DNA from: Chitinophagaceae bacterium
GTDB lineage: Bacteria; Bacteroidota; Bacteroidia; Chitinophagales; Chitinophagaceae
DNA length: 64,000 nt
Assembly (NCBI GenBank): GCA_027486835.1
Contig: JAIXOJ010000031.1
Location: 23,937 to 87,936, forward strand
Direction of reading: 5' to 3'
Part shown: piece by piece, positions 3,001-64,000 of the stretch
How positions within the stretch are numbered: position 1 is the first letter of the stretch
Layout: every line of letters starts with the position of its first letter
The notes under the pieces: generated by a model
The model's input: only the letters and a program-made list of their open reading frames with translations
Database searches by the model: none
What the model was told of the DNA's origin: nothing
Position numbers and translations under genes: made by a program

Positions 3001-4940
3001 GCCGCAAACCAGTTGTTGCTGGTACGCAAACAGTTAAAGCACTTACTGTGAGTAGCGGTGTTACTTTAACCAATAGTGGAACAATAAACGTTACTGGCAA
3101 TTTGTCCAATAATGGTAGCATCTCTGGAACAACCATTTTAAGTGGTACTTCCCTTCAAACAGTTAGCGGTATCGGAACCGTGAGTAACTTAACAGTAAAT
3201 AATACTGCCGGAGCAACCGTTACCAGCGGCAGCAACAAAGTGAACATCACTGGAGTGTTAACACTTCAATTAGGTACGTTAACTACCAATGGTAATGTGG
3301 TGTTGAAATCTAGCAGCATAGCCAATAGTGCCTTAGTAGCCCCGGTTGGTGTAGGTGGTAATTCTGGAATCATCAGCGGTACGGTACAGGTAGAACGCTT
3401 CATTCCTAAAGGATACCGTGCTTGGAGAGACATGGCACCGAGCGTATTTAATGCAGGTAGCATTTTCAACAACTGGCAAGAAGGTGGTAGCTATGCAAAT
3501 ACTGGTTACGGTGTATTTATTACGGGTACCACAGCAGTTACTGCTTCTAATGGAGTGGATGCCACCACTGGTTTAGACCAAACAGTCAATAGCGTAAAAT
3601 CTGCCTATACATTTACAGGTGGCACTTGGAATGCGGTTACCAACACCAAGACTACCAACCTAAATCCTTTCTTAGGATACCGTTTATTGGTTCGTGGCGA
3701 TAGAAGCTACAATATGTACACCACACCAGTTTCCACAGTGGGAACAACAGGGGTGTTACTAATGGTCAATGCTACTGCACTCCGTGCAACAGGTAATTTA
3801 GTTACTGGCAATGTGGTGTTCGCCACCTCTGGTATCACCAACACAGTAGCAGGCGCTACTTACAATAATGCTTCATTCGGATTGAACAGCACTACTGCCA
3901 CTGGTTTTAGTTCAGTAGCCAACCCTTATGTAGCACCATTGGATTGGAAAAACATCTGGGATAACGGACGTGCCACTAACCTTACTGCTGCCTATTATTA
4001 CCTAGACCCAACTATTGGTTCTACAGGTGCTTATGTATCGTATAACGCCTTCTCTGATGCATCCAGCAATGGAGTTGCAGCCACTAGGTACATACAAGCC
4101 GGTCAGGCTTTCTTTGTAGAAAACACTAGCACTTCGCCTAGCTTAACTATAACAGAAGCCGATAAGGCAATGTCAGCTACCAAAACATCGGTGTTTGGCA
4201 ATGCTAGTCGCAGTCGTTTGGCTATTAACTTGATGAAAGCAGACGGAGCTGAAATCAAACAAATGGATGGTGCAACAGTAGTGTTTGATAAGGCGTTTAG
4301 TAATGGCATCAGTAAAGAAGATGCAAGAAAGATGACCAACCCTGGTGAAAATCTAGCCATCAGTCGTGATGGTCAGGCTTTAAGCATTGAAGGTCGTCAA
4401 CCAGCAACTGCTGATGAAAGATTGCCATTGGCCATGAGCCAATTGACCAGCAGCGATTATCAATTATCTATCGATGCTTCTGCCTATAAAACAGACAACC
4501 TTGATGTTTACTTGGTAGATGCTTTCACCAAAAGCGAAACTTTGTTGACCAATGCCATCAACAACATCAGCTTTAATGTAGATGCTTCCAACCAAGCCAC
4601 TTATGCTAACCGTTTCAGCGTAGTATTTAAAGCCGCTTCCAAAGCAGCTACCACAACCACGCCGATTGTTACTAGCGGCATGAGTGTTTACCCTAACCCA
4701 ATGGTAGGTAATAACCTCACTGTTCGTTTGGGAAGTGAAGTAGTTGCAGGAAAGTATGAGGTAAGCATTACTAACAGCCTTGGACAAACCGTAAGTAAAT
4801 CAATCATGCTCCATAGCGGCGTTAATTCCGCAAAAACCATCACAACAGCTAGCAAGCTAGCTGGAGGGGTGTATCAGGTAACTATTACATCTTCCACCAC
4901 CAACCAAGCTATAGCCACCACTAAGCTTGCCGTAGAATAA
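1..4940 (+). CDS. 5'-partial giant T9SS-secreted surface/adhesin-like protein (paralog 1) ending in a type-A Por/T9SS C-terminal sorting domain
   Basis: Frame 3 is open from the window edge (no stop from nt 3 to 312) through 4940. The product is rich in Thr/Gly/Asn/Ser beta-strand repeats. It shares a conserved module (VQVERFIPKGYRAW...NNWQEGG...YLVDAF) and a C-terminal VYPNPMVGNNLTVRL...YQVTI tail with the other three giant ORFs. Confidence 0.85.
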   Translation, partial: TAGISASAASGPIQTTTRTYNAATTTFSYEGIAAQSTGDGLASSVYGLTINNSTGLTLTNDVTTTGKFTLTSGTLTSTSANLLTIGSAATITGGSSASFVSGPMQHTVTGTTASAKLFPIGKSTAYSPVTLTATQASATSTTYKAEAFLGGSTPSHTLPAELSVVSANRYYSLSSSANNLSAASITLGYDANDLGSSILTTTTSANMRIARGSGTWVDLGGVGTAPTTGSITSTNNFTSLGDFAIANAIVLGTPPNLTAAVGATVSANYNITFTDDLAWRNAITSVVYGSTTLTPSTDYTIASGVITIKPNGAAGAALRTAGSITITVNATNYDDGVVTQTVGAGTATKLVIKTQPTAPASNGAALATQPAVFIQDAYNNTTTSTAAVTIAVGAGGWTIGGTTTINAVNGTATFSGITAGSATAVTGATASITSGSLTGLTTSSFNIPSPVTYYWVGGTGGGAWNTAVWSLTKGGSAVTAFTPAATDVFVFDGSNIGAGATGTITTTGGASTTTVGRIVLQNNANVIFNQTSARTFNISGMIGTDLDIPFGSTLTTSGSNTTLIALAAGATASISGTLNIGQAGTGTHQLTALSTGAIVVNSTGQVVANVTSSVSIFGTATDGSVIFTNGSKLTSTKAGDPFGGVGKNVVVFQSGSTYELQNNNPLNFSGHTFSNFIYNSSSSSVVTTPGSAGIIFDNITISQRSFTISETGTATVIKGNVTVATGATLIFAPASAATVTFAGTAAQTITNSGTLTIPALQTIAINNSFGVSLGSAITSSGAVVLTTGKVNLGAFNLTVASITGGSSTAYVNASGTGRLAISAITSAATRVFPVGTATSYTPLTVSSLSVTSTVSVGVASTITNAVVDATKVLNLQWAVLASPTATATLSYQFNTANKASGFSFSTACDLGVYTSAYAVSIFTTPASSIPTGSNPFTLTKSGLSIPASGTNLYVIGNLNAIAVPTTTTWTGFASTDWNNYLNWTAHSPVSGVDASIPSTSRKPVVAGTQTVKALTVSSGVTLTNSGTINVTGNLSNNGSISGTTILSGTSLQTVSGIGTVSNLTVNNTAGATVTSGSNKVNITGVLTLQLGTLTTNGNVVLKSSSIANSALVAPVGVGGNSGIISGTVQVERFIPKGYRAWRDMAPSVFNAGSIFNNWQEGGSYANTGYGVFITGTTAVTASNGVDATTGLDQTVNSVKSAYTFTGGTWNAVTNTKTTNLNPFLGYRLLVRGDRSYNMYTTPVSTVGTTGVLLMVNATALRATGNLVTGNVVFATSGITNTVAGATYNNASFGLNSTTATGFSSVANPYVAPLDWKNIWDNGRATNLTAAYYYLDPTIGSTGAYVSYNAFSDASSNGVAATRYIQAGQAFFVENTSTSPSLTITEADKAMSATKTSVFGNASRSRLAINLMKADGAEIKQMDGATVVFDKAFSNGISKEDARKMTNPGENLAISRDGQALSIEGRQPATADERLPLAMSQLTSSDYQLSIDASAYKTDNLDVYLVDAFTKSETLLTNAINNISFNVDASNQATYANRFSVVFKAASKAATTTTPIVTSGMSVYPNPMVGNNLTVRLGSEVVAGKYEVSITNSLGQTVSKSIMLHSGVNSAKTITTASKLAGGVYQVTITSSTTNQAIATTKLAVE

Positions 4941-6748: not shown

Positions 6749-7548
6749 TTCTCAACAATTTTGTGGAGGTTCGATTGAAATTATTATAAATTGAGGATGC
6801 AATCAAATGTATCATTAAAGCTAGTACAATCACTACCATTGATTTAAAAAGTTCACCACCATTTGCAGGCAGAAAGTTTCAAAGTAAGATGGCAAAGTCT
6901 AAAAACTAGCAAAAGCAAGCATCTCACTATGATTTTATAATGAAAGCAGAACACAGATAATTCCCCAATCAACAGTTTATAGACAGCCCTTTGGAACGAG
7001 GGTGTTTTTGGTTTTTTAGAGGATTACTCAAAAAATGAGTACATACGCTTAGTTTTTGAGTAAGGATTCATTATCCAATTGTACGGTTACTCTATTCAAG
7101 AGTAACTGTCCATTATTTATTTGTAAGAATGCTCAGTTTATGTGGAGAATTATTCAATAAATGAGGAACTATACAGTTAAAATGAGTAACTTGCCTTGAT
7201 TTTTAAGCAGAAATGTATTGTGGGTTGAAAAAAAGACGTTTAGTAACAGAAAAAATAGATTAACGAATAAAGAAACTGATTATGTTAAACATACTTTCGT
7301 ATAAGACAATAGAAGAAAAAATTGAGCAAATAAATTTTCCATTGTTCATTAATTACAGAATTGAGGACAATAAAACCAATACACATCAATTAGAAAAAAA
7401 ACTAGGGAAAGGAAAGGGCTTTTTTCAGCGCATGTTTAAAAAGTATGACCCATTGGTATCCATATTGGTTATCATGAGTATTGAGTTGCAATATAATTTG
7501 TTTGAACCCTTTTTAAGTTTATTGCCCGAGCCAATACGGCTGACCTGA

Positions 7549-7820: not shown

Positions 7821-8546
7821 ATGGAAATACTAATTATCATAATTTCTGTAATTTTTTGCTTATTACTACTATCTATACCTTCGGTATTGACATACATATT
7901 GTTTAAGTACCTCAAAAGGAAAGGAGAAACTCAAAGAAAAGTTGGTCTTATAATTTTTGGACTGACAACAATACTTATGATAATTTATTCTGTTGTTTTT
8001 TTCAAAGACGGGGCGGGTTTTGGACCTGAATACAAAACAGTAGAGATAAAACAAGACATTGGCGGGAAACTAATTTGTAACTCAGTTTATAATGCCGACC
8101 TCCATTCTTGGCAATACAATGTTGATTACAAATACATCGACATTGATGGCGACACTTTAGACTTTACAAGTGGTTTCTTTTACGGACAAGAATGGGATGA
8201 AGATGAGCAAATAAAAAAGTATGACAATTGGTTAATTTTAAAAACAAGCTCTTGGAGGGGTTCAGACAGATTGATAATTAAAAATATTCAATCGGACACA
8301 ACAAAAATATTTGACATAGACAGTGAGTTCATAGAAGAGGACAGTTTGTGGGTGGCACAGAAAATTAAATCTTTAAAGAATTATTGTTGTGATGAAAGAT
8401 TTATCTATGAGATAAATGAAAATAAAATTTCAGTGATATATAAGTTCCCAACTGACGAACATTTGACACAAAAATATGGAGAGCGAAAAGTAACATATAC
8501 AATTGACACAAAAACTGGGAATATCAAAATGACGGAAATAAATTAA
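7821..8546 (+). CDS. Hypothetical membrane-anchored protein
   Basis: 241-aa ORF with two N-terminal hydrophobic helices (ILIIIISVIFCLLLLSIPSVL and VGLIIFGLTTILMIIYSVVFF) followed by a soluble domain of unknown family. Confidence 0.5.
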   Translation: MEILIIIISVIFCLLLLSIPSVLTYILFKYLKRKGETQRKVGLIIFGLTTILMIIYSVVFFKDGAGFGPEYKTVEIKQDIGGKLICNSVYNADLHSWQYNVDYKYIDIDGDTLDFTSGFFYGQEWDEDEQIKKYDNWLILKTSSWRGSDRLIIKNIQSDTTKIFDIDSEFIEEDSLWVAQKIKSLKNYCCDERFIYEINENKISVIYKFPTDEHLTQKYGERKVTYTIDTKTGNIKMTEIN

Positions 8547-9426: not shown

Positions 9427-12400
9427 ATGAAAGTGATGTTTACACGCTTGCTCGTATTGTTGTGTTGCCTCTATGCCACTAATGTTGTTGCCCAATATTA
9501 TCCTGGTGGAATGTCCAAGAGCAAAATAAATCTATGGTTCGATGCATCAGACACGGCCACGTTAACCAAGTCTTCTGGTCTAATTACGTCATGGAAGGAT
9601 AAAAGCAACAACTTATCTGCTGCACAAGCGACTACTTCTAGACAGCCAATATTAACCAGCCTCAACGGAAAAAATATTGTGGAGTTTAACGGCACTCAGG
9701 GGCTAGACATTGCTTACAATTCATTGCTAGTGCCAAACCAAGGATTTAACGTTGCACAAGTCTTGTATGTGTATGCAGATGCACCAACGAATGTGACCGA
9801 TTTTAGATCTGGTACTTTTTCCACCAATTCGGGCAACACGGGTTCGCCCTACATTGGCGTTCGGTATGTGGTAGTAGATGGTAAATACGAAATTGCTGCC
9901 AACAGAAACAATACAGGATACTATTACAGCCAATACGAAGACCTAAGAGGTAAATGGGCAATGGCCTCCACGACCTGTAATGCGGCAAACAGTAAGGTTA
10001 ATTTTTACTATAACGGTGCAGGTACCTTAAGTAGTACCGTTAGTGGTTATGTGAATAACAATACTGGGGGGGCTATTGGCAATCGGTTTGGTAATTATTC
10101 AGCCATTCATTGGGGGGTAAGCGAAACAGTTTTGGCGGGTTATGATGCCAAAAATTCTGGAAGAAGAATCATCGATTTATACCTAGCTACCAAATGGGGT
10201 ATGCGGGATACGTTGCAAAATAGTTATGGTAACCTATATGCACCTTTAGACGGAGCTTTTACCAATAATCTAGTAGGGATAGGTATAGAAAGTGCAGGCG
10301 ATACCACCAACGAAACTGGTTCCAACAATGGCTTGGGGTTGCAAAACATCAACGGGGTAACTGGATTTCTAAGAAAAGAAGGTAGTTATGTCCTTGCAGC
10401 CGACAATGGGTTATCAGGCAATGTAACAATGGCAACTGGCATTACTCGTTGGAACAGGAGTTGGTATGTGAACAAAACCGATGTATCGGGCTACGGGGGC
10501 TTGCTAAAAATAGTATTTGATTTCACTAGTTATGGTCAGGCCAATGCACTAGATACTGTCAACAACAACTACTACCTTTTATACAATCCAACCAATGGTT
10601 ATTACAATAGCGATAGCAATTATCTAGTCACAGTAAAATCTTATCAACAAGTGGCTGGTACCAAACAACTGGCTTTTTTACTTGATGGTATTGATGTAAA
10701 AAATGGTTTTTATACCCTTGTTTATGCGCCTAAAAATGGTAGTATGGCTGCATTGCCCAATTTGGCAAGTTTTGTAGCAGCCAGTGTTTCTGTGAGTCCT
10801 TCCCCCACTATTCCATCGGTATATTCTGGAAACACCTTCAACTATGTGCAAATAGATTCATCGGCCATCACTTATCCTGTAGCTTACTATAAAATTTATG
10901 CATCCGTTAATGGGGGTACATTAACAGCAATTGATAGCACCAATGGTACTACCAACTACTATGGTCATTATAATTTAACGAATGGCAACACGTATCTGTA
11001 CAAAATAAGTGCGGTATATGCCCCAGGCAAAGAGAGTGCATTATCTGATTCTGCCATTGGCATACCCAATAACAATACGCCACAATGGCTCATTCTGCCT
11101 CAATACAGTGAATCGGGCAAAATATTTATGGCGGCAGCCGCTCCATTGTCGGGTCTTCCGCTAAAATTCTCTTTTGAAAATGTTGCTGGTGGTGGACACT
11201 CTAGCGGTTTTCAACGGGCTTCCCAGTTTACAGATTCGCTGCTAACTGATGGAAATACCTATAGCTATCGATACCGATTTATGGACACCGTAATCGGTGC
11301 TGCAAGTTTGTCTGGATGGTCCACAACCCAATCGGTACTAATGACCGATTCTATACAAGGAGGTTATACCTATAATATGACCTACCTAGACCCCACCACA
11401 CCCTTTGCTCCTTATGGCATTGGGCCAGCTAATATTCTGCCTTCTAATCAAGATGTAACAGGGTTGCGTTTTATCAAGCATGTGCCGGCTGTAGGGCAGC
11501 ATCCCCGTATATTCTGTAGCCCATCCGATTCCACAGAAATTAGGTATCGATTAAAAAATACATCTGCAGGAGTGGCCGCTTCTCGGTTTATTCATGCCTA
11601 CACAACCTTGCTTCAATTGGGTAATTCCGGCTATAACAGAAATACTTTCTATAGTAGAGATACCTTGGGTAATATCTATTTCAGCAATGTAGGGGCTACA
11701 GACAGCAAAGCACTGTATGATTCATTGGCATTAGGAGACATTGGCGTTACTAATAATTATTCGAACTTATGGGGAGGTAATTATGCAAAGATGGCCTACA
11801 ACTTTTCCCATGAAGCCATGGAATGTTGGATTTATCGTAACCAAATAGATACTGTAACCAATACTTCCTACGCTACCCGTGCTAAGAAACTAGCTACCGC
11901 ACTCACGGTTTGGGCCAAGAAAGTGGTTGCAGATAATACCATCGTACCCAATTTAAACATGAGCAATTTTGGAGGATTACACAATGCCATTGCTTATGAT
12001 TTCTTATACGATCAAATGACCAAAAATCAACAAGATACCATTCGCATGGCCATCTTAAAAACTTTGCCTGACAGCAGCAAAGAGCATGGATGTTGGGCAC
12101 CTTCTTACACCACCACTACCAACTGGGCAACTTTTGGCGGTGAAATAACTTGCAATATTGCCGTTGAAGGCGAGCCTGGGTATTCTGCTAAAGATTCAGG
12201 ATTATTAAGAGGATGGGTAAAAACCGTTTGGAATTTCTTGACGTATGGTGTTTACCCAACTGGTAATATGTATGAAGGCATTGGTAAAAATCGATTGAAT
12301 GAATTTTTGCTAATAGCGATGGCCAAAAGAGGATATAGTGTATTGGGGCATCCCAATATCAGGGCATATGCTCAAAAGTATTTACCAGCAGTGGTGCAAC

Positions 12401-21532: not shown

Positions 21533-21787
21533 ATGACAACAAAAGGAATCATTGCAACAGTAGTAATTGCCAGTATGATAGTGGCACAGCCATTAATGGC
21601 ACAGTTTAGTGGTTCTGGGCCATCCACTTTAGCTCCCCCCATACCGCCCCCCCCACCACCAGTACCAGAAGTTCCTTTCGATGGTGGAATGAGCATTGTA
21701 TTACTTGCCAGTGGGATAGGCTATGCTTCAAAAAAATTAAAACAGCTTAAAGGCACACCAAACCAAGATACCAGTTTCATCGGCTAA
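21533..21787 (+). CDS. Mini-protein A: signal peptide + Pro-rich linker + conserved C-terminal PFDGG–TM helix–KK motif (putative sorting/anchor signal)
   Basis: 84 aa: MTTKGIIATVVIASMIVAQPLMAQ | FSGSGPSTLAPPIPPPPPPVPEVP | FDGGMSIVLLASGIGYASKKLKQLK. It lies 247 bp downstream of giant gene 2. The gene at 55126 shows near-identity in the C-terminal 22 residues. Confidence 0.6.
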   Translation: MTTKGIIATVVIASMIVAQPLMAQFSGSGPSTLAPPIPPPPPPVPEVPFDGGMSIVLLASGIGYASKKLKQLKGTPNQDTSFIG

Positions 21788-21792
21788 ATAAA

Positions 21793-21835
21793 TGGGCTAA
21801 TGCCATGCACATACAATGTGCATGGCATTAGCCCA
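21793..21835 (+). terminator. Perfect 19-bp-stem hairpin (gggctaatgccatgcacat / acaa / atgtgcatggcattagccc) directly after the mini-protein A stop
   Basis: Exact inverted repeat read from the sequence. No strong T-run follows, so it may be a terminator or an RNA-stability element. Confidence 0.5.
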
Positions 21836-21854
21836 AATTATTGCTTTACGAAAA

Positions 21855-21955
21855 AGTCGGTTTCTAGATACGCTGTGGGTAATTCCCCTCTTGAGGGGTG
21901 GCGGAACGCCGGGGTGGCAATTCCGCACAAGTTATACAACTAGGAAACATTGGCT
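21855..21955 (+). repeat. Structured ~100-bp repeat element, copy A (two hairpins: cccctc-tt-gagggg and ggcg-gaa-cgcc; conserved ggggtggcaattccgcacaagt core)
   Basis: About 85% identical to copy B at 27605..27715. The second hairpin differs by two compensatory double substitutions. Confidence 0.6.
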
Positions 21956-22126
21956 TCCAATCTCTTGCTCTGCTGATAATACTCTTCACTTGAAGGAGAA
22001 TATGGTTCTTATTTGAGCGATTGGCAAAACAGCACAATAACCACCCTCATCCATGAGTTTTATAAATGCCTATTACAACCATTTACTGAATTAGATAATT
22101 GTTTGTTTTTTAAAAGGCGTTATCAA

Positions 22127-22684
22127 TTAATTGATAAAGTCTTCCACATTGGGCATTTTCTCGAGTTGGTTATTTAATTTCTCTTCCATTTGCGAAAAGG
22201 TTTCATTTCCATTTAAAACTTTGGAAGCATATTCGTACGGATATAGGGATAATACAACTCCATTTTTGTTATATTTTAAGGTCATACCTCTTAATGGATA
22301 TTCTGGTTTTTCATCTTTATATAGTTTAAAACCATACTTTTTAATCAGAAAGTCGCTAAATGAAATAGCTAAAAACAAAGTTGCCTGTGCCTCGCCAAGT
22401 TGATAAGCTTTACAATACAATACAAATCCAAAACCTGCTTGGTCTGTCTGGTCAAGATTATTTGGGTGATTGATTGGGTCTTCCATTTTTCTTGTAATCT
22501 TATTGGCAATAAAATAACCTTCAACCATTTTTAAGCAACCATCAAGCATTTCAGCATCAATATTATCCTCTCTATATCTTTTTTCAAAATATTCGGTTGT
22601 GTGGATTCCATCAATGTTTAAACCTTCCTTTTCCGTTTCTTCTTCTTTCTTAGTTGAAAAGAATAGTTTTCTAAAAAAACTCAT
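22127..22684 (-). CDS. Hypothetical protein (185 aa)
   Basis: Clean ORF convergent with the mini-protein gene. No recognisable motifs. Confidence 0.45.
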   Translation of the reverse strand: MSFFRKLFFSTKKEEETEKEGLNIDGIHTTEYFEKRYREDNIDAEMLDGCLKMVEGYFIANKITRKMEDPINHPNNLDQTDQAGFGFVLYCKAYQLGEAQATLFLAISFSDFLIKKYGFKLYKDEKPEYPLRGMTLKYNKNGVVLSLYPYEYASKVLNGNETFSQMEEKLNNQLEKMPNVEDFIN

Positions 22685-22839
22685 ACTGTTTGTTTATAAT
22701 TTCTATTGATTAAATGTTTGGCGTTAACGAAGGCTTCCAATTTCTTTTCCACTATGGTATTAACCCTATCGTTGCAATATTCCCCCTTTTTTGTTTAAAA
22801 TAAAGATGCATTGCTGAACTTGCCGGACAGCAGCAATAA

Positions 22840-23721
22840 CTACCAATTCAATGCCTCTGGAATTTGATCAAACAATTTTTTCCAATTACGGTCTTCTGTC
22901 TTGTATAAGACCGTTTTTATAGCATACCAAACTGAAGGGTGTTGATAATTTTGGATATAAGCTCTATAGCTTTCTTTAATTTCATTTTTTATATGCTCTA
23001 GTGGTCGTGTAAAATCGAAACGTCCTTCGTTTGGTCGTAGTACTTCTTGAAGTTCTTCTATTGTCTTTGAGTTTGATATTCTCACAATTCTTTCCAAGCA
23101 ATCATAGTAATGATTTGCAGCACTTTTTCTTGCTGCTACTAACACATCCCTTTCATTCAATTCTAAAATACGAAGTGTATAATTGGCTTTATTGAAACTT
23201 TTTTTGTCTTCTTCGGTGGAAATAATTATTTCGAATCGATGGGTGTAGGGGTTCAACACCATAAAATCATTCGGATTTTCTGTCCTTGGATTGATGAATG
23301 CAATTTCATTATGCGGAGGTTTATTCCCACGTTCCGTTTTTGTTACGCTATTGTCTGTAGCGTTGATAACATAGCATTTGTCTAGTTTAAATCCTGAATT
23401 ACAGGTCTTGCAAGCCAAGAGATAATTATCCCATACAAAAGCATGTTCAGGAAAGAATGATTTTGGATAAATATGTTCTATATCCCCTGCCTCATTTTGC
23501 TCACAATAATTACAAACACCCGTAAAAACGCACAAGTCAAATAATTCGCTTTTGATCGTTTCAAATGCCGCTTTTGTTAGTCCTGAACTTTTTGCATTCC
23601 AAAGGGCTTTTGCTTTTGCAGCCTGCTGTTCAAAGGTGGTTTCAGCATTTATTTGAGCTTGCAAATCAGCTAAGGTTTTCTGCGTATTGGCATCTAAGGT
23701 TTTAGTTAGCAATCGAATCAT
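22840..23721 (-). CDS. HNH-nuclease-motif protein, PtuB-like partner of the upstream ATPase (Septu-like)
   Basis: Carries CNYCEQNEAGDIEHIYPKSFFPEHAFVWDNYLLACKTCNSGF, a CxxC...H...P...N...CxxCN HNH pattern. Its start overlaps the ATPase stop by 20 bp. Confidence 0.65.
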   Translation of the reverse strand: MIRLLTKTLDANTQKTLADLQAQINAETTFEQQAAKAKALWNAKSSGLTKAAFETIKSELFDLCVFTGVCNYCEQNEAGDIEHIYPKSFFPEHAFVWDNYLLACKTCNSGFKLDKCYVINATDNSVTKTERGNKPPHNEIAFINPRTENPNDFMVLNPYTHRFEIIISTEEDKKSFNKANYTLRILELNERDVLVAARKSAANHYYDCLERIVRISNSKTIEELQEVLRPNEGRFDFTRPLEHIKNEIKESYRAYIQNYQHPSVWYAIKTVLYKTEDRNWKKLFDQIPEALNW

Positions 23722-25036
23722 CGGTACTTAGTATTTGTAGTAACTCATGCCTTTCGTTTTCTTCCTCGTTAGTGATTTTGCCAAGTGCCGATAACACGTT
23801 TAGTCTTCCCAAACGTTCCAGTTTTTCAGCAGATTTAGCAGACCGCACTGCCTCTTTGCCAAATAACTCCGTACCGTAAGCATCTAGTATGTTGCCATAA
23901 ATGAGCTTTTCTTTTTCAGTTCCCGTAATTTCATTGATAACTACCGCCCCGTTTGCAGCTTCCAATCGCCAGATACTCCCCTTATCACAAGCACGGCATA
24001 TCAAAGGGCTATGTGTTGTTACGATAAATTGTAAATCGGGAAAATGTTGTGTAAACCAACCACCTATTTTGGTTTGCCAGCTTGGATGCAAGTGGGCATC
24101 TACCTCATCTATCAAAACAACCCCAGGCAGTTTTATTTGATTGGTAGCTGCTAAATCTTTAAACACCGGTTCATGACCAAAAGTAATAATCAGCTGACGA
24201 ATCAATTCAAAAGTCAAACTAAGAATAGAACGAAAACCATCACTTAATTGCGTAACAGGAAAATTATTACCAGATGCATCTTTAAAAATGGGCAGTTCAT
24301 CCACTTTTTCAAACCTTACCCCATTTGGCAGCAATCCACTTTTATTTACAAAATGTTTTATGTTATCTAAAATAATACCCGATTCAGATTCCTCTAGGCC
24401 ATATTCCTTTTCCTTTAGCCGTTTATAATCAAGGCTTTTTATCCAAGCTAGCACTTCGGTTAATGCAGCACCTTCATCAAAAACGCTTAAGTGCGCGCCA
24501 ACTTTAGGTGACGAAAGATACACTTTGTCTAATTCTGGATTTCCTCCAGTAAATCTTCTAAAGGAACCAAAGCCTGCCGAGAACCATCCTTTGCCAGTAC
24601 CCCAGTTGTAATTATTTTCTTTATCTGGGTGTTTTATAGATTTCAAATTTGCATCCCCAATTTCAAAATTATAATTATCACGTAGTATTACTTTTTTGTC
24701 AGTATCAATAAAAAGAATCGCATTGCAAATAAGATCTAACTCTTCTATATTTGTTTTGCTTTTACCTGTATTTTCATCGATTTCTTTATCAGTAGTAATA
24801 AAAACACATGTACTCCCAAACGCTTCCCCCTTTCTTAACCATTCATTCCAATCAGCACGGATAGCATGAGCTTCAATAGGACCAATCAAGGCCAATGAAA
24901 CTGCTTTTATGAAAGTAGATTTACCAGAACCATTGTCTCCAATCAATACATTCCATCCCGCATAATGGGGATGAAAGTCGATTGTAAGGGCTTCAATTAA
25001 TCCAATATTTAAAAGCTTTACTCTATCTATATACAT
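23702..25036 (-). CDS. ABC/SMC-like ATPase of the AAA_15/AAA_21 (OLD/RecF-like) family, PtuA-like
   Basis: Has Walker A GDNGSGKST, ABC signature LSDGFRSILSL, Walker B VVLIDEVDAHLHP and H-loop VTTHSP. 444 aa, immediately upstream of the HNH gene. Confidence 0.7.
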   Translation of the reverse strand: MYIDRVKLLNIGLIEALTIDFHPHYAGWNVLIGDNGSGKSTFIKAVSLALIGPIEAHAIRADWNEWLRKGEAFGSTCVFITTDKEIDENTGKSKTNIEELDLICNAILFIDTDKKVILRDNYNFEIGDANLKSIKHPDKENNYNWGTGKGWFSAGFGSFRRFTGGNPELDKVYLSSPKVGAHLSVFDEGAALTEVLAWIKSLDYKRLKEKEYGLEESESGIILDNIKHFVNKSGLLPNGVRFEKVDELPIFKDASGNNFPVTQLSDGFRSILSLTFELIRQLIITFGHEPVFKDLAATNQIKLPGVVLIDEVDAHLHPSWQTKIGGWFTQHFPDLQFIVTTHSPLICRACDKGSIWRLEAANGAVVINEITGTEKEKLIYGNILDAYGTELFGKEAVRSAKSAEKLERLGRLNVLSALGKITNEEENERHELLQILSTDDSIAN

Positions 25037-25305
25037 TAAGTACCAATTTAAAATTCGTGATATTTTTTCTCAACTTGATTACAAGTTCTTTAATTTGGTA
25101 AAGAAAAGCGATTTATTGCTTTGTGAGATTATTGGGGTAATAAAAGAAAAAAGCCCTGGGCGAAATCTTTGCCTTGTGCATCTCTCCCAAATATTCAAAT
25201 CCTATTTTTAAAAGGCAACACCAAACCTAATTCGAATAACACCTTTCTATTTCCAAATAAGCCCCAGCAGCAGGTTTGCGACAGCAATAGCCCTAAAACG
25301 CCGAT

Positions 25306-25520
25306 AAACATCAATCGAGGTTCAATAAACATCAATCAAGGTCTGATAGACATCAATCGAGGTCTGATAGACATCAATCAAGGTCTGATAGACATCAATC
25401 GAGGTTCGATAGACATCAATCAAGGTCTGATAGACATCAATCGAGGTCTGATAGACATCAATCGAAGTGCGATAGACATCAATCGAGGTGCGATAGACAT
25501 CAATCGAGGTCTGATAGACA
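25306..25520. repeat. Tandem array of ~10.5 copies of a 21-bp unit (agacatcaatcgaggtctgat, with cg/ca and ct/gc variants)
   Basis: Repeats read directly from the sequence, with no spacers between copies. The predicted ORF 25169..25528 is just the in-frame translation of the repeat. Confidence 0.9.
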
Positions 25521-25700
25521 GAAATTGAACTTTTTACACCTTTTTGGATAGTTTTTGCTCTAGAAAAGGATAAAAAAGTGATATTTTTAAGTTTTAACTT
25601 TTCAATTAGATATTTTAACGGTGACGACGATTGCGCAATTCAAATTCTTTTTTTACTTTCGCTTCTGAAATTCATTTAAGAACATTAAAAAGCAATTATT

Positions 25701-26378
25701 ATGGAATTTTATAGTATCCCAGCAAGTGTATCACAATTTGACGTTTACCAAGAATCGCTTTATGATTTAGTTACCAAAAATGCCTCTGATTGGGGTATCC
25801 CCGCAGCCGTTGTGGCCAAATTAACCGCATTGCGCAACAAATGGGCACCAGCCTTCAAATTGCAAGCGGACGAATACACCGCTAGCAAGGCCAATAAAAT
25901 TACTCGGGATACTATAAGAAAGGAATATGAGACCGAGATTAAAAACATTATTGAACAATATTTACTCAACAAAAGCACCATTGCCGAAGATAAAAAGGGA
26001 ATGATTGGGATAAAAACCAAAAAAACACCTACTTCCACCAAGGGCGAATTAAAAGGATTTCCAGTTATTGAAGTTCGTATCAATGGTTCGTTGGCACATA
26101 GCATTGTTTTTCGCGATTCCATTGCTACTAAAAGCAAGGCGAAACCAAAGGGTGTTGCTTTTTGCGAATTGCGTTATAAAGTGATAGATACTGGCACGGC
26201 TGGGCCTATTAGTGCAGATGATTTTACAGGATATGAGCTTATTTCTTCTAGTGGTGATAATGTTCGCTTTCCAGAGACGTACCGCGGCAAAACCGCCCAC
26301 TACTTTGCTCGCTGGCGCAGAATAGATGGCTCAACAGGCTCTTGGAGTGCTTTTACAGATGGTGGAGTAATTAGTTAA
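25701..26378 (+). CDS. Hypothetical protein (225 aa), founder of a small paralog family
   Basis: Clean ORF 180 bp downstream of the 21-bp array. A frameshifted paralog fragment with the same downstream terminator sequence lies at 46140..46560 (minus). Confidence 0.55.
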   Translation: MEFYSIPASVSQFDVYQESLYDLVTKNASDWGIPAAVVAKLTALRNKWAPAFKLQADEYTASKANKITRDTIRKEYETEIKNIIEQYLLNKSTIAEDKKGMIGIKTKKTPTSTKGELKGFPVIEVRINGSLAHSIVFRDSIATKSKAKPKGVAFCELRYKVIDTGTAGPISADDFTGYELISSSGDNVRFPETYRGKTAHYFARWRRIDGSTGSWSAFTDGGVIS

Positions 26379-26401
26379 TTCCTGAATAGGTTATGATTAT
26401 T

Positions 26402-26446
26402 AAGCTCGAATGGACTACTACGTAAGTCTGTTCGAGCTTTTTTTAT
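26402..26446 (+). terminator. Rho-independent terminator (aagctcgaa...ttcgagctt + T7)
   Basis: Hairpin plus T-run 24 bp after the stop. The same motif is present after the pseudogene copy. Confidence 0.6.
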
Positions 26447-26883
26447 GGCTAATCTGACTACAAGGGCTTTTTACTTTTTAGTGATTCAAGATAAATGGCA
26501 AGGGGGTATGCAGGTCAAGAGGGGAATATTATAATGAATAAAACAACCAGAATAGTCCTTGCTATGTTGTATAAAAGTTTTATTCTTTTCCTTTCTTCAA
26601 GTGTTAAACAGTTGTGGTAAGGTAAAATGTCACCCAAGGCAAACAAGTTTTATCATCCAAATAAGTAAGGGCAAAATATCATAAAACGCACGCCATTCAG
26701 GCGTTCTAGTTCCCTATCCATAGGAGCTTGCGTTTATACAGATTTTATAGGTGCAAGACTATATCCGTTAGGTAAGCAAAGCGGGGTTTGGCTCAGTAAA
26801 AAAGAAATACCCCCATCCAATGTAACTTCTATTAGTAGGCAGGGTCTGTTGGTTTAATATTAACATAAAACGATTGTAATTAA

Positions 26884-27522
26884 ATGAAAAAGCAATTTTC
26901 AGTTATTGCCCTGCTTTGCCTTGTGATAGTTATTTGCGCAGCCTTTGTAAGCCCTAAGAATGTATTAATCGTGGGCGATTCTATCTCCATAGGTTATTTC
27001 CCAGTGGTTCAAAAAGCATTAGCCCCCGATGTGGTAGTAGAACACAACAGTGGAAATGGCGGTAACACAAAAAGAGGGGTTGACCGCATAGAACAATGGT
27101 TGGGCACCAAGCAATGGGATGTAATCCTTTTCAATTTTGGTCTGCATGACTTAGCAAGGATTGATTCTGCCCACAAATACGATGAAGTAAATGGAAAAGT
27201 GGAGATAACCATTGAAGAGTACAAAAAGAACCTCACCACCATTGTAAACAAGCTCAAAGAAACCACGGCCACCCTCATTTTTGCCACCACTACAGAAGTA
27301 CCCCCTAATGCCAAGGGACGTTTAGTGCAAGACGTGCCATTATACAACGCAGCGGCACTAGAAGTAATGAAAAAGAACGGCATTCAGGTGCTTGATCTTT
27401 ATACTCCATCACTAACCATCCACCCAGCCAATTCAAAGCCCGGCAATGTTCATTATACCGAAGCAGGTTACGAACTATTAGCAGCACCAATAATCAAAGC
27501 CATAAAAGCGGCCCTCAAATAA
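26884..27522 (+). CDS. Secreted SGNH/GDSL-family hydrolase
   Basis: Signal peptide, GDSIS (block I), GNGGNT, and NFGLHD motifs. Confidence 0.7.
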   Translation: MKKQFSVIALLCLVIVICAAFVSPKNVLIVGDSISIGYFPVVQKALAPDVVVEHNSGNGGNTKRGVDRIEQWLGTKQWDVILFNFGLHDLARIDSAHKYDEVNGKVEITIEEYKKNLTTIVNKLKETTATLIFATTTEVPPNAKGRLVQDVPLYNAAALEVMKKNGIQVLDLYTPSLTIHPANSKPGNVHYTEAGYELLAAPIIKAIKAALK

Positions 27523-27604
27523 CATAATGTTAGCAACATACGTTATGCAACAGGAAAACTTTGGCCCTCCCGTACTATTTTCACTGTTTCACTTCTTTAA
27601 AAAA

Positions 27605-27715
27605 AGCCAGTTTCTAAATACTCGGTGGACAATTCCCCTCTCGAGGGGTGCCCAAAGGGCGGGGTGGCAATTCCGCACAAGTCATACAACAGGAAAACTT
27701 TGGCCGCCACAAACT
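27605..27715 (+). repeat. Structured ~100-bp repeat element, copy B (hairpins cccctc-tc-gagggg and gccc-aaa-gggc)
   Basis: Aligns with copy A. It is flanked by the direct repeat caacaggaaaactttggcc at 27549 and 27698. Confidence 0.6.
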
Positions 27716-27744
27716 ATTACTCTATTAAATAAATAAAAAATAGC

Positions 27745-27765: not shown

Positions 27766-28096
27766 CGCTTTTTCTGCACAAAACTGCAATGCTGTTGATG
27801 TGTGATATATGCTAACTACCGGAAAAGAAAGTTAGATGCGCCAAATAAACAAAGTATAAAAATGTCTTGCAATCAATACCAGGCTAACATTCCAGTTCCC
27901 TCTCTTTTGGAGAGGGGTTGGAGTGAGGTTTAAATTAGGGGGGCGAAAAACGTTAATGCTCCCATCCATTTTCAGGTTTTCCCACTTTGAATCAGTAAAC
28001 TGTAGCAGGTGGTTTCAATATACTTTCTTGCTAAATAAAACCACCCACTTACCACTTACTAGTTTACTTTGCTCACTTATTCATATCTCTTTTATC

Positions 28097-46139: not shown

Positions 46140-46560
46140 CCCTGATTATCCTGTACTCAAACAAAAAAAGCCAGACCAGACAACTTTAGTAGCCCATTCG
46201 AGCTTAAATAATAATAACCTATTCAGAGATTACAATTATTCCGCCATCTGTAAAAGTACTCTAAGGATCAGTGGAGTCATATTTTCTGAGGCAGCAAGCA
46301 AAATAGTGTGCGATTTTTAGGCGGTGCGTCTCAGGAAAGCGAATACTATCACCACTAGAAAAAATTAACTCATATCCTGTAAATTCTTCTGCACTAATTG
46401 GTCCAGCTGTGCCAGTATCTATTACATTATAACACAATTTACAAAAGCAACACCCTTTGGTTTCGCCTTACTTTTAGCAGCTATGGAATTGCGAAAAACA
46501 ATGCTGTGTGTCAATGAACCATTGATACGATCTTCAATTAATGGATGTCCTTTTTATTCG
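46140..46560 (-). pseudogene. Frameshifted, 5'-truncated paralog of the 225-aa gene at 25701..26378, including its downstream terminator sequence
   Basis: Minus-strand translation gives ...IEDRINGSLTHSIVFRNSIAAKSKAKPKGVAFVNCVIM* then, after a frameshift, DTGTAGPISAEEFTGYELIFSSGDSIRFPET... This matches ...IEVRINGSLAHSIVFRDSIATKSKAKPKGVAF...DTGTAGPISADDFTGYELISSSGDNVRFPET of the intact gene. Downstream it carries taagctcgaatgg(g/a)ctacta. Confidence 0.6.
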
Positions 46561-46579
46561 CTTCAAACCAGCCGCTATT

Positions 46580-46750
46580 TGACGGCAACCAAACGAAGCC
46601 TCCGCGAGCCTCTCGTCAACTGACGGCAGCCAAACGGAGCCTCCGCGAGCCTCTCGTCAACTGACGGCAACCAAACGGAGCCTCCGCGAGCCTCTCGTCA
46701 ACTGACGGCAATCAAACGGAGTCTCCGCGACCCTCTCGTCAACTGACGGC
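46580..46750. repeat. Tandem array of 4.2 copies of a 41-bp unit (tgacggcaaccaaacggagcctccgcgagcctctcgtcaac)
   Basis: Read directly from the sequence. It lies immediately 5' (on the coding strand) of the pseudogene. Confidence 0.9.
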
Positions 46751-46988
46751 TGAAAAAAGAAGCTTTTTACAATAAGAAATCAATTGAGGGAAAGCCCATC
46801 GAAGCATCCAACCGCTTGAAATCAATTGATGGCGAAAGATTAACCCTCTTTGCAGTTAAGTATTTGGAGAAATCTGCTTGTCATGCGTTGGTTGGTTTCG
46901 GGGTTTAGTTGGAGTGACTACAAATTTTCTTTTCTTTACTGAGCGCTTTTGTATCTCAGCATTTCAAATATGGTTGCTGCTTTTTAAT

Positions 46989-47091
46989 TGGGGGTGCGTA
47001 AAAGTTTTTCGCTATGAAGCTTCGTTTTAACTTATACAGGGTTTCAAACCCTATATAAGTTTGCGAAAGGGGCGAAAAACTTTTACGCACC
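46989..47091. mobile_element. MITE-like element: 21-bp terminal inverted repeats gggtgcgtaaaagtttttcgc / gcgaaaaacttttacgcaccc around an ~60-bp structured core (gggtttcaaaccc hairpin)
   Basis: Perfect TIRs. A second full copy at 63390..63490 carries the same core in inverted orientation, with TIR positions co-varying (gcgt/acgc vs gcac/gtgc). Confidence 0.55.
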
Positions 47092-47207
47092 CAACCAGAT
47101 TGGCTTATTTCCCTTCTGGAAATATCTAGGACTAAAGCATACAAGATATAAATGGTACTAAGCACTCTCCGGACCATTGACACTTGTTATGAATAACCAA
47201 CAGAAAT

Positions 47208-63389: not shown

Positions 63390-63490
63390 GGGTGCACAAA
63401 AGTTTTTCGCCGCCATCGCAAACTTTTAAAGGTTTTCAAACCCTATAAAAGTTAAAACGAAGCTTCAAAGCGAAAAACTTTTGTGCACCC
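63390..63490. mobile_element. MITE-like element, second full copy (gggtgcacaaaagtttttcgc ... gcgaaaaacttttgtgcaccc), inverted core relative to the 46989 copy
   Basis: Perfect 21-bp TIRs. The interior ggttttcaaaccct...aagttaaaacgaagcttc is the reverse complement of the 46989-copy interior. Confidence 0.55.
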
Positions 63491-63730
63491 CTTTCTTTGC
63501 CCAGAGTGCTTGTATTGTTTATTGTATCCACTAAAAAATGTGTTGCTTAATTTTAAATAGTTAAGACAATCTGTTTGCTCGAGAATTATTTCGTGTCAAC
63601 AACTGAAGTTTAGCCTAAGAAATATGTAATTATTCTGTAGATGGCGGTAATATAAAACTCATTTTTTGCAAAATCAATTTACAATTAAATTAATTGTTTA
63701 GGCTTCTTTGGTTATTTCTCTAAGATAATT

Positions 63731-64000
63731 ATATCAGCGAAGGCGAGGAATATATCAGCGAAGGCGAGGAATATGTCAGCGAAGGCGAAGAATATGTCAG
63801 CGAAGGCGAAGAATATGTCAGCGAAGGCGAAGAATATATCAGCGAAGGTGAGGAATATATCAGCGAAGGCGGGGAATATATCAGCGAAGGTGAAGGATAT
63901 ATCAGCGAAGGTGAGGAATGTATCAGCGAAGGTGAGGAATATATCAGCGAAGGTGAGGAATATATCAGCGAAGGTGAAGAATATATCAGTGAAGGTAAGG
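63731..64000. repeat. Tandem array of at least 13 copies of a 21-bp unit (atatcagcgaaggcgaggaat, with variants) running to the window edge
   Basis: Read directly from the sequence. It lies 240 bp downstream of the MITE-like copy. Confidence 0.9.

Follow-up and report, generated by a model that had tools for sequence, protein, structure and literature searches.

A two-hairpin palindromic repeat from a Chitinophagaceae contig belongs to a multi-phylum module family found beside DUF559 nuclease genes

A 64,000-nt stretch of a Chitinophagaceae bacterium contig (the window, by which we mean the whole stretch) carries two copies of a repeat of about 110 nt, in which one hairpin differs in sequence between the copies while its pairing is kept. 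What kind of element is maintained in this way: an RNA, a gene, a recombination site or a mobile DNA? The original prediction, made from the letters alone, left a choice between a small RNA (sRNA), a 3' untranslated region (3'-UTR) element and a repetitive extragenic palindromic (REP)-like element. The last of these fitted best, the family of the repeat being multi-copy, mostly extragenic, nearly neutral in orientation and found in arrays and as in-frame insertions. We propose, with a probability of about 0.6, that the window repeats are orphan copies, not autonomous, of a palindromic DNA of the REP or miniature inverted-repeat transposable element (MITE) kind that is, or once was, mobile and whose spread would be driven by a nuclease of the DUF559 family. 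The main interest lies in the wider family and its link to DUF559 rather than in the window locus.

The repeat and its hairpins

The two copies and their parts are as follows.

21851-21960, + strand: copy A of the ~110-nt composite repeat (repeat family D6, blastn, alignment with copy B)
27601-27712, + strand: copy B of the ~110-nt composite repeat (repeat families, blastn, alignment with copy A)
21877-21921, + strand: core module of copy A, comprising AATT, hairpin 1, TG, hairpin 2 and GGGGTGG (covariance model R1, 53.6 bits, E=2.4e-16, full length)
27627-27671, + strand: core module of copy B (R1, 52.3 bits, E=7.1e-16, full length)
21885-21898, + strand: hairpin 1 of copy A, CCCCT-CTTG-AGGGG (sequence; single and consensus fold predictions)
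27635-27648, + strand: hairpin 1 of copy B, CCCCT-CTCG-AGGGG (sequence; single and consensus fold predictions)
21900-21910, + strand: hairpin 2 of copy A, variable, GGCG-GAA-CGCC (sequence; consensus fold; family-wide covariation)
27650-27660, + strand: hairpin 2 of copy B, GCCC-AAA-GGGC (sequence; consensus fold)
21911-21917, + strand: G-tract of copy A, GGGGTGG, closely repeating the 3' arm of hairpin 1 (constant through the pattern used to select copies)
21856-21865, + strand: 5' arm of copy A in what may be a closing helix or an imperfect terminal inverted repeat (partner arm 21942-21954)
21942-21954, + strand: 3' arm of copy A, possible closing helix or inverted repeat (consensus fold)
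27537-27579, + strand: partial third copy, 3' terminal segment only, 43 nt (family D10; 79% identical to 27676-27718; blastn 19/19)

The copies had been placed at 21855..21955 and 27605..27715, as repeats of about 100 bp with about 85% identity; both are real and slightly longer. They aligned without gaps across the first ~105 nt at 82-84% identity (84% as mean column identity of the alignment, 82% over 109 nt ungapped, and 84.4% over 90 nt by blastn, E=2e-14). A 22-nt core, GGGGTGGCAATTCCGCACAAGT, and a 20-nt sequence, AATTCCCCTCTNGAGGGGTG, each occurred exactly twice in the window, compared with 0.00-0.01 occurrences expected from shuffles; the 20-nt sequence is the hairpin 1 block. A sensitive self-search and a covariance-model search, run with filters off, found no third full copy in the 64-kb window. 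Copy A starts 64 nt past the stop (21787) of an open reading frame (ORF) of 84 aa, and copy B 79 nt past the stop (27522) of a GDSL lipase gene, in line with the location 70-80 bp after + strand gene stops given originally.

Hairpin 2, at 11 nt, holds five of the ~14 differences between the copies in their first 90 nt. Two of its four pairs are flipped from G-C to C-G with pairing kept, exactly as the compensatory flips had been described, and the loop differs at one base. Inversion of the hairpin between the copies was rejected as the source of the flips, since the reverse complement of hairpin 2 of copy A differs from that of copy B. Template switching at a quasi-palindrome could account for both flips in this one pair of copies, but as the sole cause it cannot explain a stem that is free in sequence across the family between fixed flanks.

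The G-tract was fixed by the pattern with which copies were selected, so its invariance is not independent evidence of conservation. At the ends of the ~110-nt unit, a consensus fold of the two sequences alone gave ten pairs, four with one-sided, pairing-preserving changes and four that are G·T in copy A, making a weak case for a closing helix or terminal inverted repeat. Single-sequence folds of the + strand were no stabler than those of shuffles (z = -0.70 and +0.24). The direct repeat that had been noticed flanking copy B, an exact 19-nt sequence (CAACAGGAAAACTTTGGCC) at 27548-27566 and 27687-27705, is real and lies within the match of the partial third copy, to which it belongs. Because it is element-derived and similar to the 3' end of copy A, it is not a target-site duplication.

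The module family, its pairing and its insertion sites

We searched 596 Gb with the hairpin 1 pattern AATTCCCCTCNNGAGGGGTG, which has 18 specified bases. It matched at least 112 stretches in 56 genomes from about 12 phyla, compared with ~17 expected by chance on an arithmetic estimate. Among the matches listed, 110 out of 134 carried the remainder of the module, and nearly all continued with TG, a perfect hairpin of free sequence and length, and then (A)CGGGGTGG; several genomes had six to nine separate matches each. The shared unit is a 45-nt core made up of AATTCCCCTC-NN-GAGGGGTG, the variable hairpin and then CGGGGTGG. Carrier phyla include Chlamydiota, Patescibacteria and Bacteroidota. By record title, the carriers included Patescibacteria (several classes), Bacillota, Thermotogaceae and Ignavibacteria/Kapabacteria; Pedobacter, Parasediminibacterium, Flavobacterium, Saprospiraceae and one Chitinophagaceae metagenome-assembled genome (MAG) among Bacteroidota; and Nitrospirota, Limisphaerales, Hyphomicrobiales, Desulfobulbaceae, Sulfurovum, Bdellovibrionales and Simkania. 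As far as these alignments indicate, the fixed part of the module is identical across about 12 phyla, which would be unusual for REP-like repeats, normally lineage-specific. Covariance model R1, built from 96 distinct copies, gave 158 and a further 49 matches in the fetched loci (~200), some 40 of them outside the search pattern.

Beyond the 45-nt module, flanks showed no conservation between genera; the ~110-nt unit is therefore a lineage-specific composite around a shared module. An exact 20-mer of the window-specific core, GGGGTGGCAATTCCGCACAA, had no match in species-representative genomes and metagenome contigs, and a looser pattern for the Chitinophagaceae-type 3' extension had none in metagenomes, so the ~110-nt composite was not found outside the window. 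In Parasediminibacterium the 3' extension, and GGTTTCTAG upstream, were no more than weakly echoed. The 66 kb covered in the nearest available relatives, at bshA loci of 89% and 85% identity that share no synteny with the window, held no module, and collections of plasmid, phage and E. coli genomes gave no meaningful match. A single contig of the viral collection (L119) carried the module, with pattern copies at 4583-4602 and 8461-8480 in direct orientation, 3.9 kb apart, and further R1 matches at 7360-7406, 9816-9864 and 10708-10792; all five lie on one strand, like the window pair. The original picture of a structured repeat stood; what it had not seen was the cross-phylum 45-nt module, the composite nature of the ~110-nt unit and the DUF559 link. 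Separately, on Parasediminibacterium contig 4, at ~7.7-9.0 kb (L032 7702 to L036 968), three modules lie within a non-coding tandem repeat of ~613 bp.

Selection keeps the hairpins paired, and the repeat does not code for protein. In 96 copies, hairpin 2 was hypervariable in sequence and length, with pairing kept: double-sided changes numbered 165 compared with 57±5 in column shuffles (none of 500 shuffles reached that count), and 87% of cells were paired compared with 73% in shuffles, falling to 40-55% when partners were slid by one to three columns. A larger R1-fitted alignment of 144 distinct copies gave the same covariation result. In those 144 copies the hairpin 1 helix was 99.7% paired, with three C-G to U-A compensations. 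Compensated stem variants occurred even inside one genome, a Thermotogaceae MAG with AACC/GGTT, AATC/GATT and AGTC/GACT. Although the search pattern had fixed hairpin 1, the variants that R1 picked up still form it; one of them, CTCCTC/GAGGAG, was present at three loci (L008, L009 and L084), where the downstream G-tract reads GGAGGTGG; because the two switch together, the C-tract and both G-tracts co-vary. The original argument that covariation favours a structured non-coding element was right, and the flips between the window copies are a small sample of covariation across about 100-150 copies.

The two strands are not equivalent. Hairpin 2 loops were GAA in 27 copies, GTA in 12 and GCA in 5 (44 in total), compared with four for the complement TTC, and stem mismatches were G·T in 14 cases and A·C in three. 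Stems ran from 3 to 14 bp, with modes at 4 and 6-7, beginning with G-C; loops were mostly of 3 nt, and most long forms had a G·A pair beneath the closing G-C. The written strand is, to judge from the sequences, the one that folds. Hirao and colleagues reportedly described C-GNA-G triloops as unusually stable mini-hairpins of single-stranded DNA (ssDNA), and such triloops with sheared G·A pairs are a signature of very stable ssDNA mini-hairpins rather than of RNA. Because of these features we lean towards an ssDNA form: the module most likely folds as single-stranded DNA, with an RNA form possible when it is transcribed.

Copies are placed as expected of mobile DNA. Among the matches listed, 114 of 134 copies (85%) lay outside ORFs of at least 120 aa; co-directional spacers held 31 sense and 22 antisense copies, convergent spacers 20 and divergent spacers nine. 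Copies occurred as singles, as inverted dimers in both senses and in tandem runs. Single copies or dimers also lay in frame inside the RNB (RNase R), tRNA-synt_1 (class I aminoacyl-tRNA synthetase), TGT and TatD domains, each of which was 30-46 residues longer than its Pfam profile, and inside C-terminal domains of the type IX secretion system (T9SS). The in-frame insertions add about 10-45 residues (for example, NSPLEGW...DGV or ATPQEGN) and were found at these positions.

L084, ~4336-4431: in-frame insertion
L037, ~5039: in-frame insertion
L079, ~5819: in-frame insertion
L055, ~6556: in-frame insertion
L117, 1295 and 4113: in-frame insertions

DUF559 nuclease genes beside the module

Clustering of ORFs in the flanks (1022 ORFs from 112 loci in 56 genomes, among the matches listed) revealed no widely shared family. 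One small cluster directly adjoined the modules: DUF559 (PF04480), a Vsr-like PD-(D/E)XK domain, which was the sole gene family tightly adjacent to them. In most of the 13 DUF559 loci, inverted modules bracket a small DUF559 gene (L037 and L055a being the exceptions), with one or more modules in gene orientation just upstream, one or more inverted modules just downstream, and the AATTCCCC ends facing outward. One Kapaibacterium cassette (L040) shows the layout.

L040, 26-74, + strand: module
L040, 100-507: DUF559 gene
L040, 509-558, - strand: module

The bracket was also full at L078. L116 had modules upstream and an atypically long inverted match downstream, L071 and L090 had modules upstream only, and at L055b the sole module lay ~510 nt downstream. 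In the reverse direction, DUF559 homologues chosen by protein similarity alone were flanked by modules at five out of five loci (L120-L124; E 1e-12 to 1e-20), all of them counted among the bracketed loci. Two of the five were only 54% identical to the query. Two DUF559 copies on one Kapaibacterium contig were 99% identical, and a Limisphaerales MAG and a Saccharibacteria MAG had DUF559 proteins that share 75% identity. Upstream of other DUF559 subfamilies there seem to be different G-rich palindromes. The closest solved structure to the DUF559 protein was 3hrl, an uncharacterised Neisseria protein. Published work places DUF559 in one group with Vsr and the EDxHD homing endonuclease I-Bth0305I (PMC3424549, PMC3239194, PMC9403480), and because of this grouping a selfish nuclease role for the protein is plausible. 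As a separate observation, at L078 4711-5546 and L116 85-1714 (Saccharibacteria MAG, Limisphaerales MAG) a DUF559 cassette with several modules lies within or beside ORFs resembling type I restriction S subunits.

We propose the following explanation for these arrangements. The functional core would be the 45-nt module, consisting of the fixed hairpin AATTCCCCT-CTTG-AGGGG, the second, free-sequence paired hairpin and the G-tract CGGGGTGG, which mirrors the 3' arm of the first hairpin. The bracketing layout is also reminiscent of a transposase gene between inverted repeats. A DUF559 endonuclease would recognise the module and make it spread, either through homing by cut and repair or through transposition. 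Modules that stand alone, such as those in the window, would be left-over or trans-mobilised copies; the window holds no DUF559 gene in its 64 kb, and its copies are for that reason regarded as orphans. In the source genome, the module sits inside a lineage-specific ~110-nt unit with weakly complementary ends, and that unit was duplicated, its copies both being found in 3' spacers of + strand genes. A more specific proposal, which we put forward only tentatively and hold to be rather less likely than its converse, is that the module is the recognition or terminal-repeat element of an unrecognised class of mobile units of ~0.55-0.6 kb. Such units would consist of a DUF559 gene between two inverted modules and would spread with orphan modules within and between phyla, the nuclease acting on a folded single strand or on inverted dimers.

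Several observations weigh against a DUF559-driven mobile element. Neither a transposition or homing event nor an empty site or a target-site duplication came to light, synteny with relatives being too poor for an empty-site search, and the 64-kb window holds only two copies. The conservation of hairpin 1 is in part a matter of ascertainment, because the search used hairpin 1, and an RNA would account for the strand asymmetry and the wobble pairs just as well as ssDNA would. Three of the five reverse-test loci come from one Kapaibacterium lineage, and the duplicated segment of L120 and L122 also takes in the upstream gene. In Candidatus Brachybacter algidus (L007 3589-4065), the gene between inverted modules is a HicA-like toxin gene. 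Some taxonomic assignments of MAGs may be binning errors. To our knowledge there is no transposase that consists of a PD-(D/E)XK domain only, and an enzyme of the proposed kind would have no precedent for mobilising repeats alone.

The arrangement resembles that of REP and REPIN sequences with their REP-associated tyrosine transposases (RAYTs): short, extragenic, multi-copy palindromes that occur as singles and inverted dimers and prefer gene 3' ends or convergent spacers (PMC3116915; PMC2817692), with a cognate nuclease gene bracketed by inverted copies and strand-specific hairpin folding implicated. Like a REP, whose imperfect palindrome measures 20-40 bp, the 45-nt module forms stem-loops, their pairing supported by covariation, but it has two hairpins and a G-tract where a REP has one palindrome. 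As to the high copy number of REPs, several genomes had six to nine separate matches among those listed, and the window has two copies in 64 kb. No GTAG tag stood beside either hairpin in the window copies or the family consensus, and no RAYT (IS200-like/HUH Y1) gene was present in the 0.8 Mb of flanks covered (1022 ORFs, 112 loci, among the matches listed; whole genomes were not searched). The adjacent gene encodes instead a PD-(D/E)XK DUF559 nuclease, and whereas REP families are specific to a species or genus, the fixed part of the module appears identical across about 12 phyla. The module arrangement seems to work like REP-RAYT while lacking both the GTAG tag and the RAYT gene that mark membership.

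Among other palindromes, CGTC-tagged REPs occur in several phyla, including Bacteroidetes, Chlorobi and Thermotogae, as head-to-head dimers that are sometimes intragenic, and with 'no dedicated transposase' (Di Nocera et al. 2013, PMC3733652). In that family the palindrome is flanked by a terminal CGTC (or TGTC/CCTC) tag and a CCA tail. The long-form hairpin 2 of the module reads, on the minus strand, CGTC-stem-loop-stem-CCA, with this tag and tail. However, the window copies (CCACCCCGGCG... and CCACCCCGCCC...) and other short forms of Bacteroidota lack CGTC, CCA being present in the window copies; the module has neither the 8-9 bp stems starting with two A-T pairs nor the 4-5 nt loops of that family (PMC3733652); GGGGTGG/CCACCCC strings are absent from the supplementary tables of PMC3733652; and the peptides encoded by CGTC-tagged REPs (for example, VIPGLDPGIH) are unrelated to those of the module. 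We rejected these families as its identity on the stem and loop definitions, the untagged window copies and the missing strings.

Rickettsia palindromic elements (RPEs) are likewise selfish palindromes that lie in frame within housekeeping genes without destroying them, but their sequence is unrelated, and they are 100-150 bp long, confined to Rickettsia and without a known nuclease partner. With MITEs (Correia/NEMIS, ERIC and BOX) the ~110-nt unit shares imperfectly complementary ends, a non-coding nature and a partial extra copy by copy B; unlike them it has no clear terminal inverted repeat (ten pairs, four of them wobble in copy A). No target-site duplication and no insertion sequence was found, and the DUF559 cassettes have module ends and no known transposase. 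Free-standing Vsr-like/EDxHD homing endonuclease genes (I-Bth0305I; PMC3239194, PMC2677866) are also small selfish genes for a nuclease of the Vsr/DUF559 fold (PMC3424549), with several copies per genome and shared by distant phyla. They lie in group I introns or between split inteins and have one target gene, whereas the predicted DUF559 nuclease gene lies between inverted dispersed repeats. In the searchable literature we did not find the hairpin sequence, the DUF559 literature did not mention flanking repeats, and the 5' hairpins of a Vsr-like homing endonuclease paper were unrelated to the module. The searchable literature likewise held no description of the association between module and DUF559, which is not proof of its absence.

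If the proposal is true, DUF559 units would parallel REP-RAYT in function while using a different nuclease fold, and they might explain the lack of a dedicated transposase in some REP-like super-families; a 45-nt module with an invariant 20-nt hairpin would have spread over at least a dozen bacterial phyla, even in frame into essential genes. The bracketing by modules offers a concrete functional hypothesis for PF04480, a very large domain of unknown function, as a possible mobilising enzyme for palindromic repeats that have no RAYT. Use of R1 in annotation would flag modules and avert the calling, as protein, of spurious small ORFs and of odd N-terminal extensions to neighbouring genes (NSPLEGW..., IPLLRGG...).

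Alternative readings and surroundings of the window copies

The element might instead work as RNA, as a structured 3'-UTR element (a 3' exonuclease stabiliser or a terminator-like stop) or as a + strand sRNA; we consider this unlikely. The sense position of both window copies, 64-79 nt downstream of + strand genes, is echoed in the family by a slight surplus of copies whose upstream ORF is on the same strand (60 versus 38) and a preference for gene 3' ends among the matches listed, yet 22 of the 53 copies in co-directional spacers are antisense to genes, and others lie in frame within coding regions or in inverted and tandem arrays. Strong covariation and G·U-type wobbles (14 versus 3 for A·C) would suit an RNA, as would the stabilisation of upstream mRNA known for classical REPs (PMC3733652), whereas the + strand folds are no stabler than shuffles and the loops are mostly GNA triloops, not the GNRA or UNCG tetraloops typical of RNA. 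The Rfam 15 scan, run as had been advised, gave no family match and hence no reclassification: it found nothing in the window at gathering thresholds or over modules in 18 loci, and permissive scans returned only chance-level microRNA and sRNA matches. A T-rich tail followed only 15 of 110 copies, and copy B had no match to a sigma-70-type promoter in a scan that does not cover Bacteroidota-type promoters, so the sRNA and 3'-UTR options of the original prediction gained no support. An intrinsic terminator was rejected too, a terminator-like scan having flagged neither copy and the T-rich tail being so rare. An RNA role is compatible with a mobile DNA element, to which an RNA-level effect on upstream genes may possibly be added. 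That the repeats are small protein genes, of 66 and 69 aa with a shared GWQFRTS frame, has next to no chance of being right. One frame is indeed open across both copies (21816-22016 and 27527-27736), but so are several others on both strands over the core; the differences between copies concentrate in paired stem positions and change the peptide freely, and in other genomes modules lie in every frame and orientation with respect to ORFs. When the two copies were searched as a six-frame peptide profile, 5.8 billion proteins yielded no homologue, though the GSGSG linkers of the profile may have weakened that search. The small ORFs are thus only open frames, and the original view of them as non-coding was sound.

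Two accounts at the DNA level also have to be weighed. A host protein, such as gyrase, a repressor or a nucleoid-associated protein, could bind the module, which presents the GGGG(T/A) motif three times, once inverted, and would be kept for chromosome organisation rather than for mobility; we regard this as improbable. It would suit the three co-varying GGGG/GGAG cores (both arms of hairpin 1, the 5' one inverted, and the G-tract after it), the almost invariant fixed parts, as seen in copies retrieved through the hairpin 1 pattern or through a model derived from copies so obtained, and the binding of IHF, gyrase and Pol I by REP and BIME sequences of E. coli (PMC2817692). A duplex site would nevertheless leave unexplained the strand-asymmetric loops and wobbles and the hypervariable paired hairpin between the sites; apart from the DUF559 neighbours, no candidate protein is common to all carrier phyla, and the distribution among close relatives is patchy. 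The case is weak, and the chance quite small, that the copies are recombination sites of the attL/attR kind or hotspot boundaries of a 5.6-kb island. They do form direct repeats flanking 21961-27600, a segment that holds a complete Septu defence pair on the - strand at 22840-25036 (PtuA ATPase at 23702-25036, PADLOC E=4.8e-135, and PtuB HNH nuclease at 22840-23721, - strand, PADLOC E=4.4e-75), and GC content drops from ~0.43-0.46 to 0.31-0.36 right after copy A, across 22000-25800. It recovers ~1-1.7 kb before copy B, however, and the GDSL lipase gene lies at normal GC inside the segment. The direct pair on the viral contig L119, 3.9 kb apart and with more R1 matches between and beyond it, speaks for such boundaries; elsewhere the family consists mainly of singles and close dimers, which speaks against them. 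Pairs of att sites from one event start out identical, whereas the copies are 82-84% identical with compensatory changes; no integrase or recombinase lies between them, no empty site was found, and synteny with relatives is not conserved. On that identity, the missing integrase and a right GC boundary away from copy B, att sites were rejected. A mobile palindromic DNA element with a candidate DUF559 partner remains our preferred reading.

The 84-aa ORF upstream of copy A (21533-21787, + strand) is proline-rich, with a PID-CTERM sorting domain at 24.2 bits (cutoff 26), and copy A points towards a gene on the minus strand, at its 3' end. The GDSL lipase gene and bshA, whose product is 85% identical to Hydrotalea BshA, flank copy B. 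One further palindrome is a neighbour of copy A and falls outside the repeat.

21793-21835, both strands: perfect 20-bp palindrome after the stop of the ORF and before copy A (terminator-like scan)

The spacers of the source genome are repeat-rich. A second palindromic repeat type, TTCCCTCTCTTTTGGAGAGGGGTTGGAGTGAGGTTT, occurs at 27895-27930 of the window and may be a related module family; its GTTGGAGTGAGGTTT part also lies beside Kapaibacterium DUF559 cassettes (L040 ~570-640, L120 ~3130-3180) and there repeats the final codons of the T9SS gene upstream. Short dispersed repeats, GGGGCGAAAAAC..., occur at 27940-27968 and 47069-47097, and a 33-nt palindrome, AACTTATACAGGGTTTCAAACCCTATATAAGTT, at 47029-47061 and 63421-63453. 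Tandem arrays are present at 25260-25574 and 63688-63981 (21-bp periods, with 11 and 9 units) and at 46539-46784 (41-bp period, five units).

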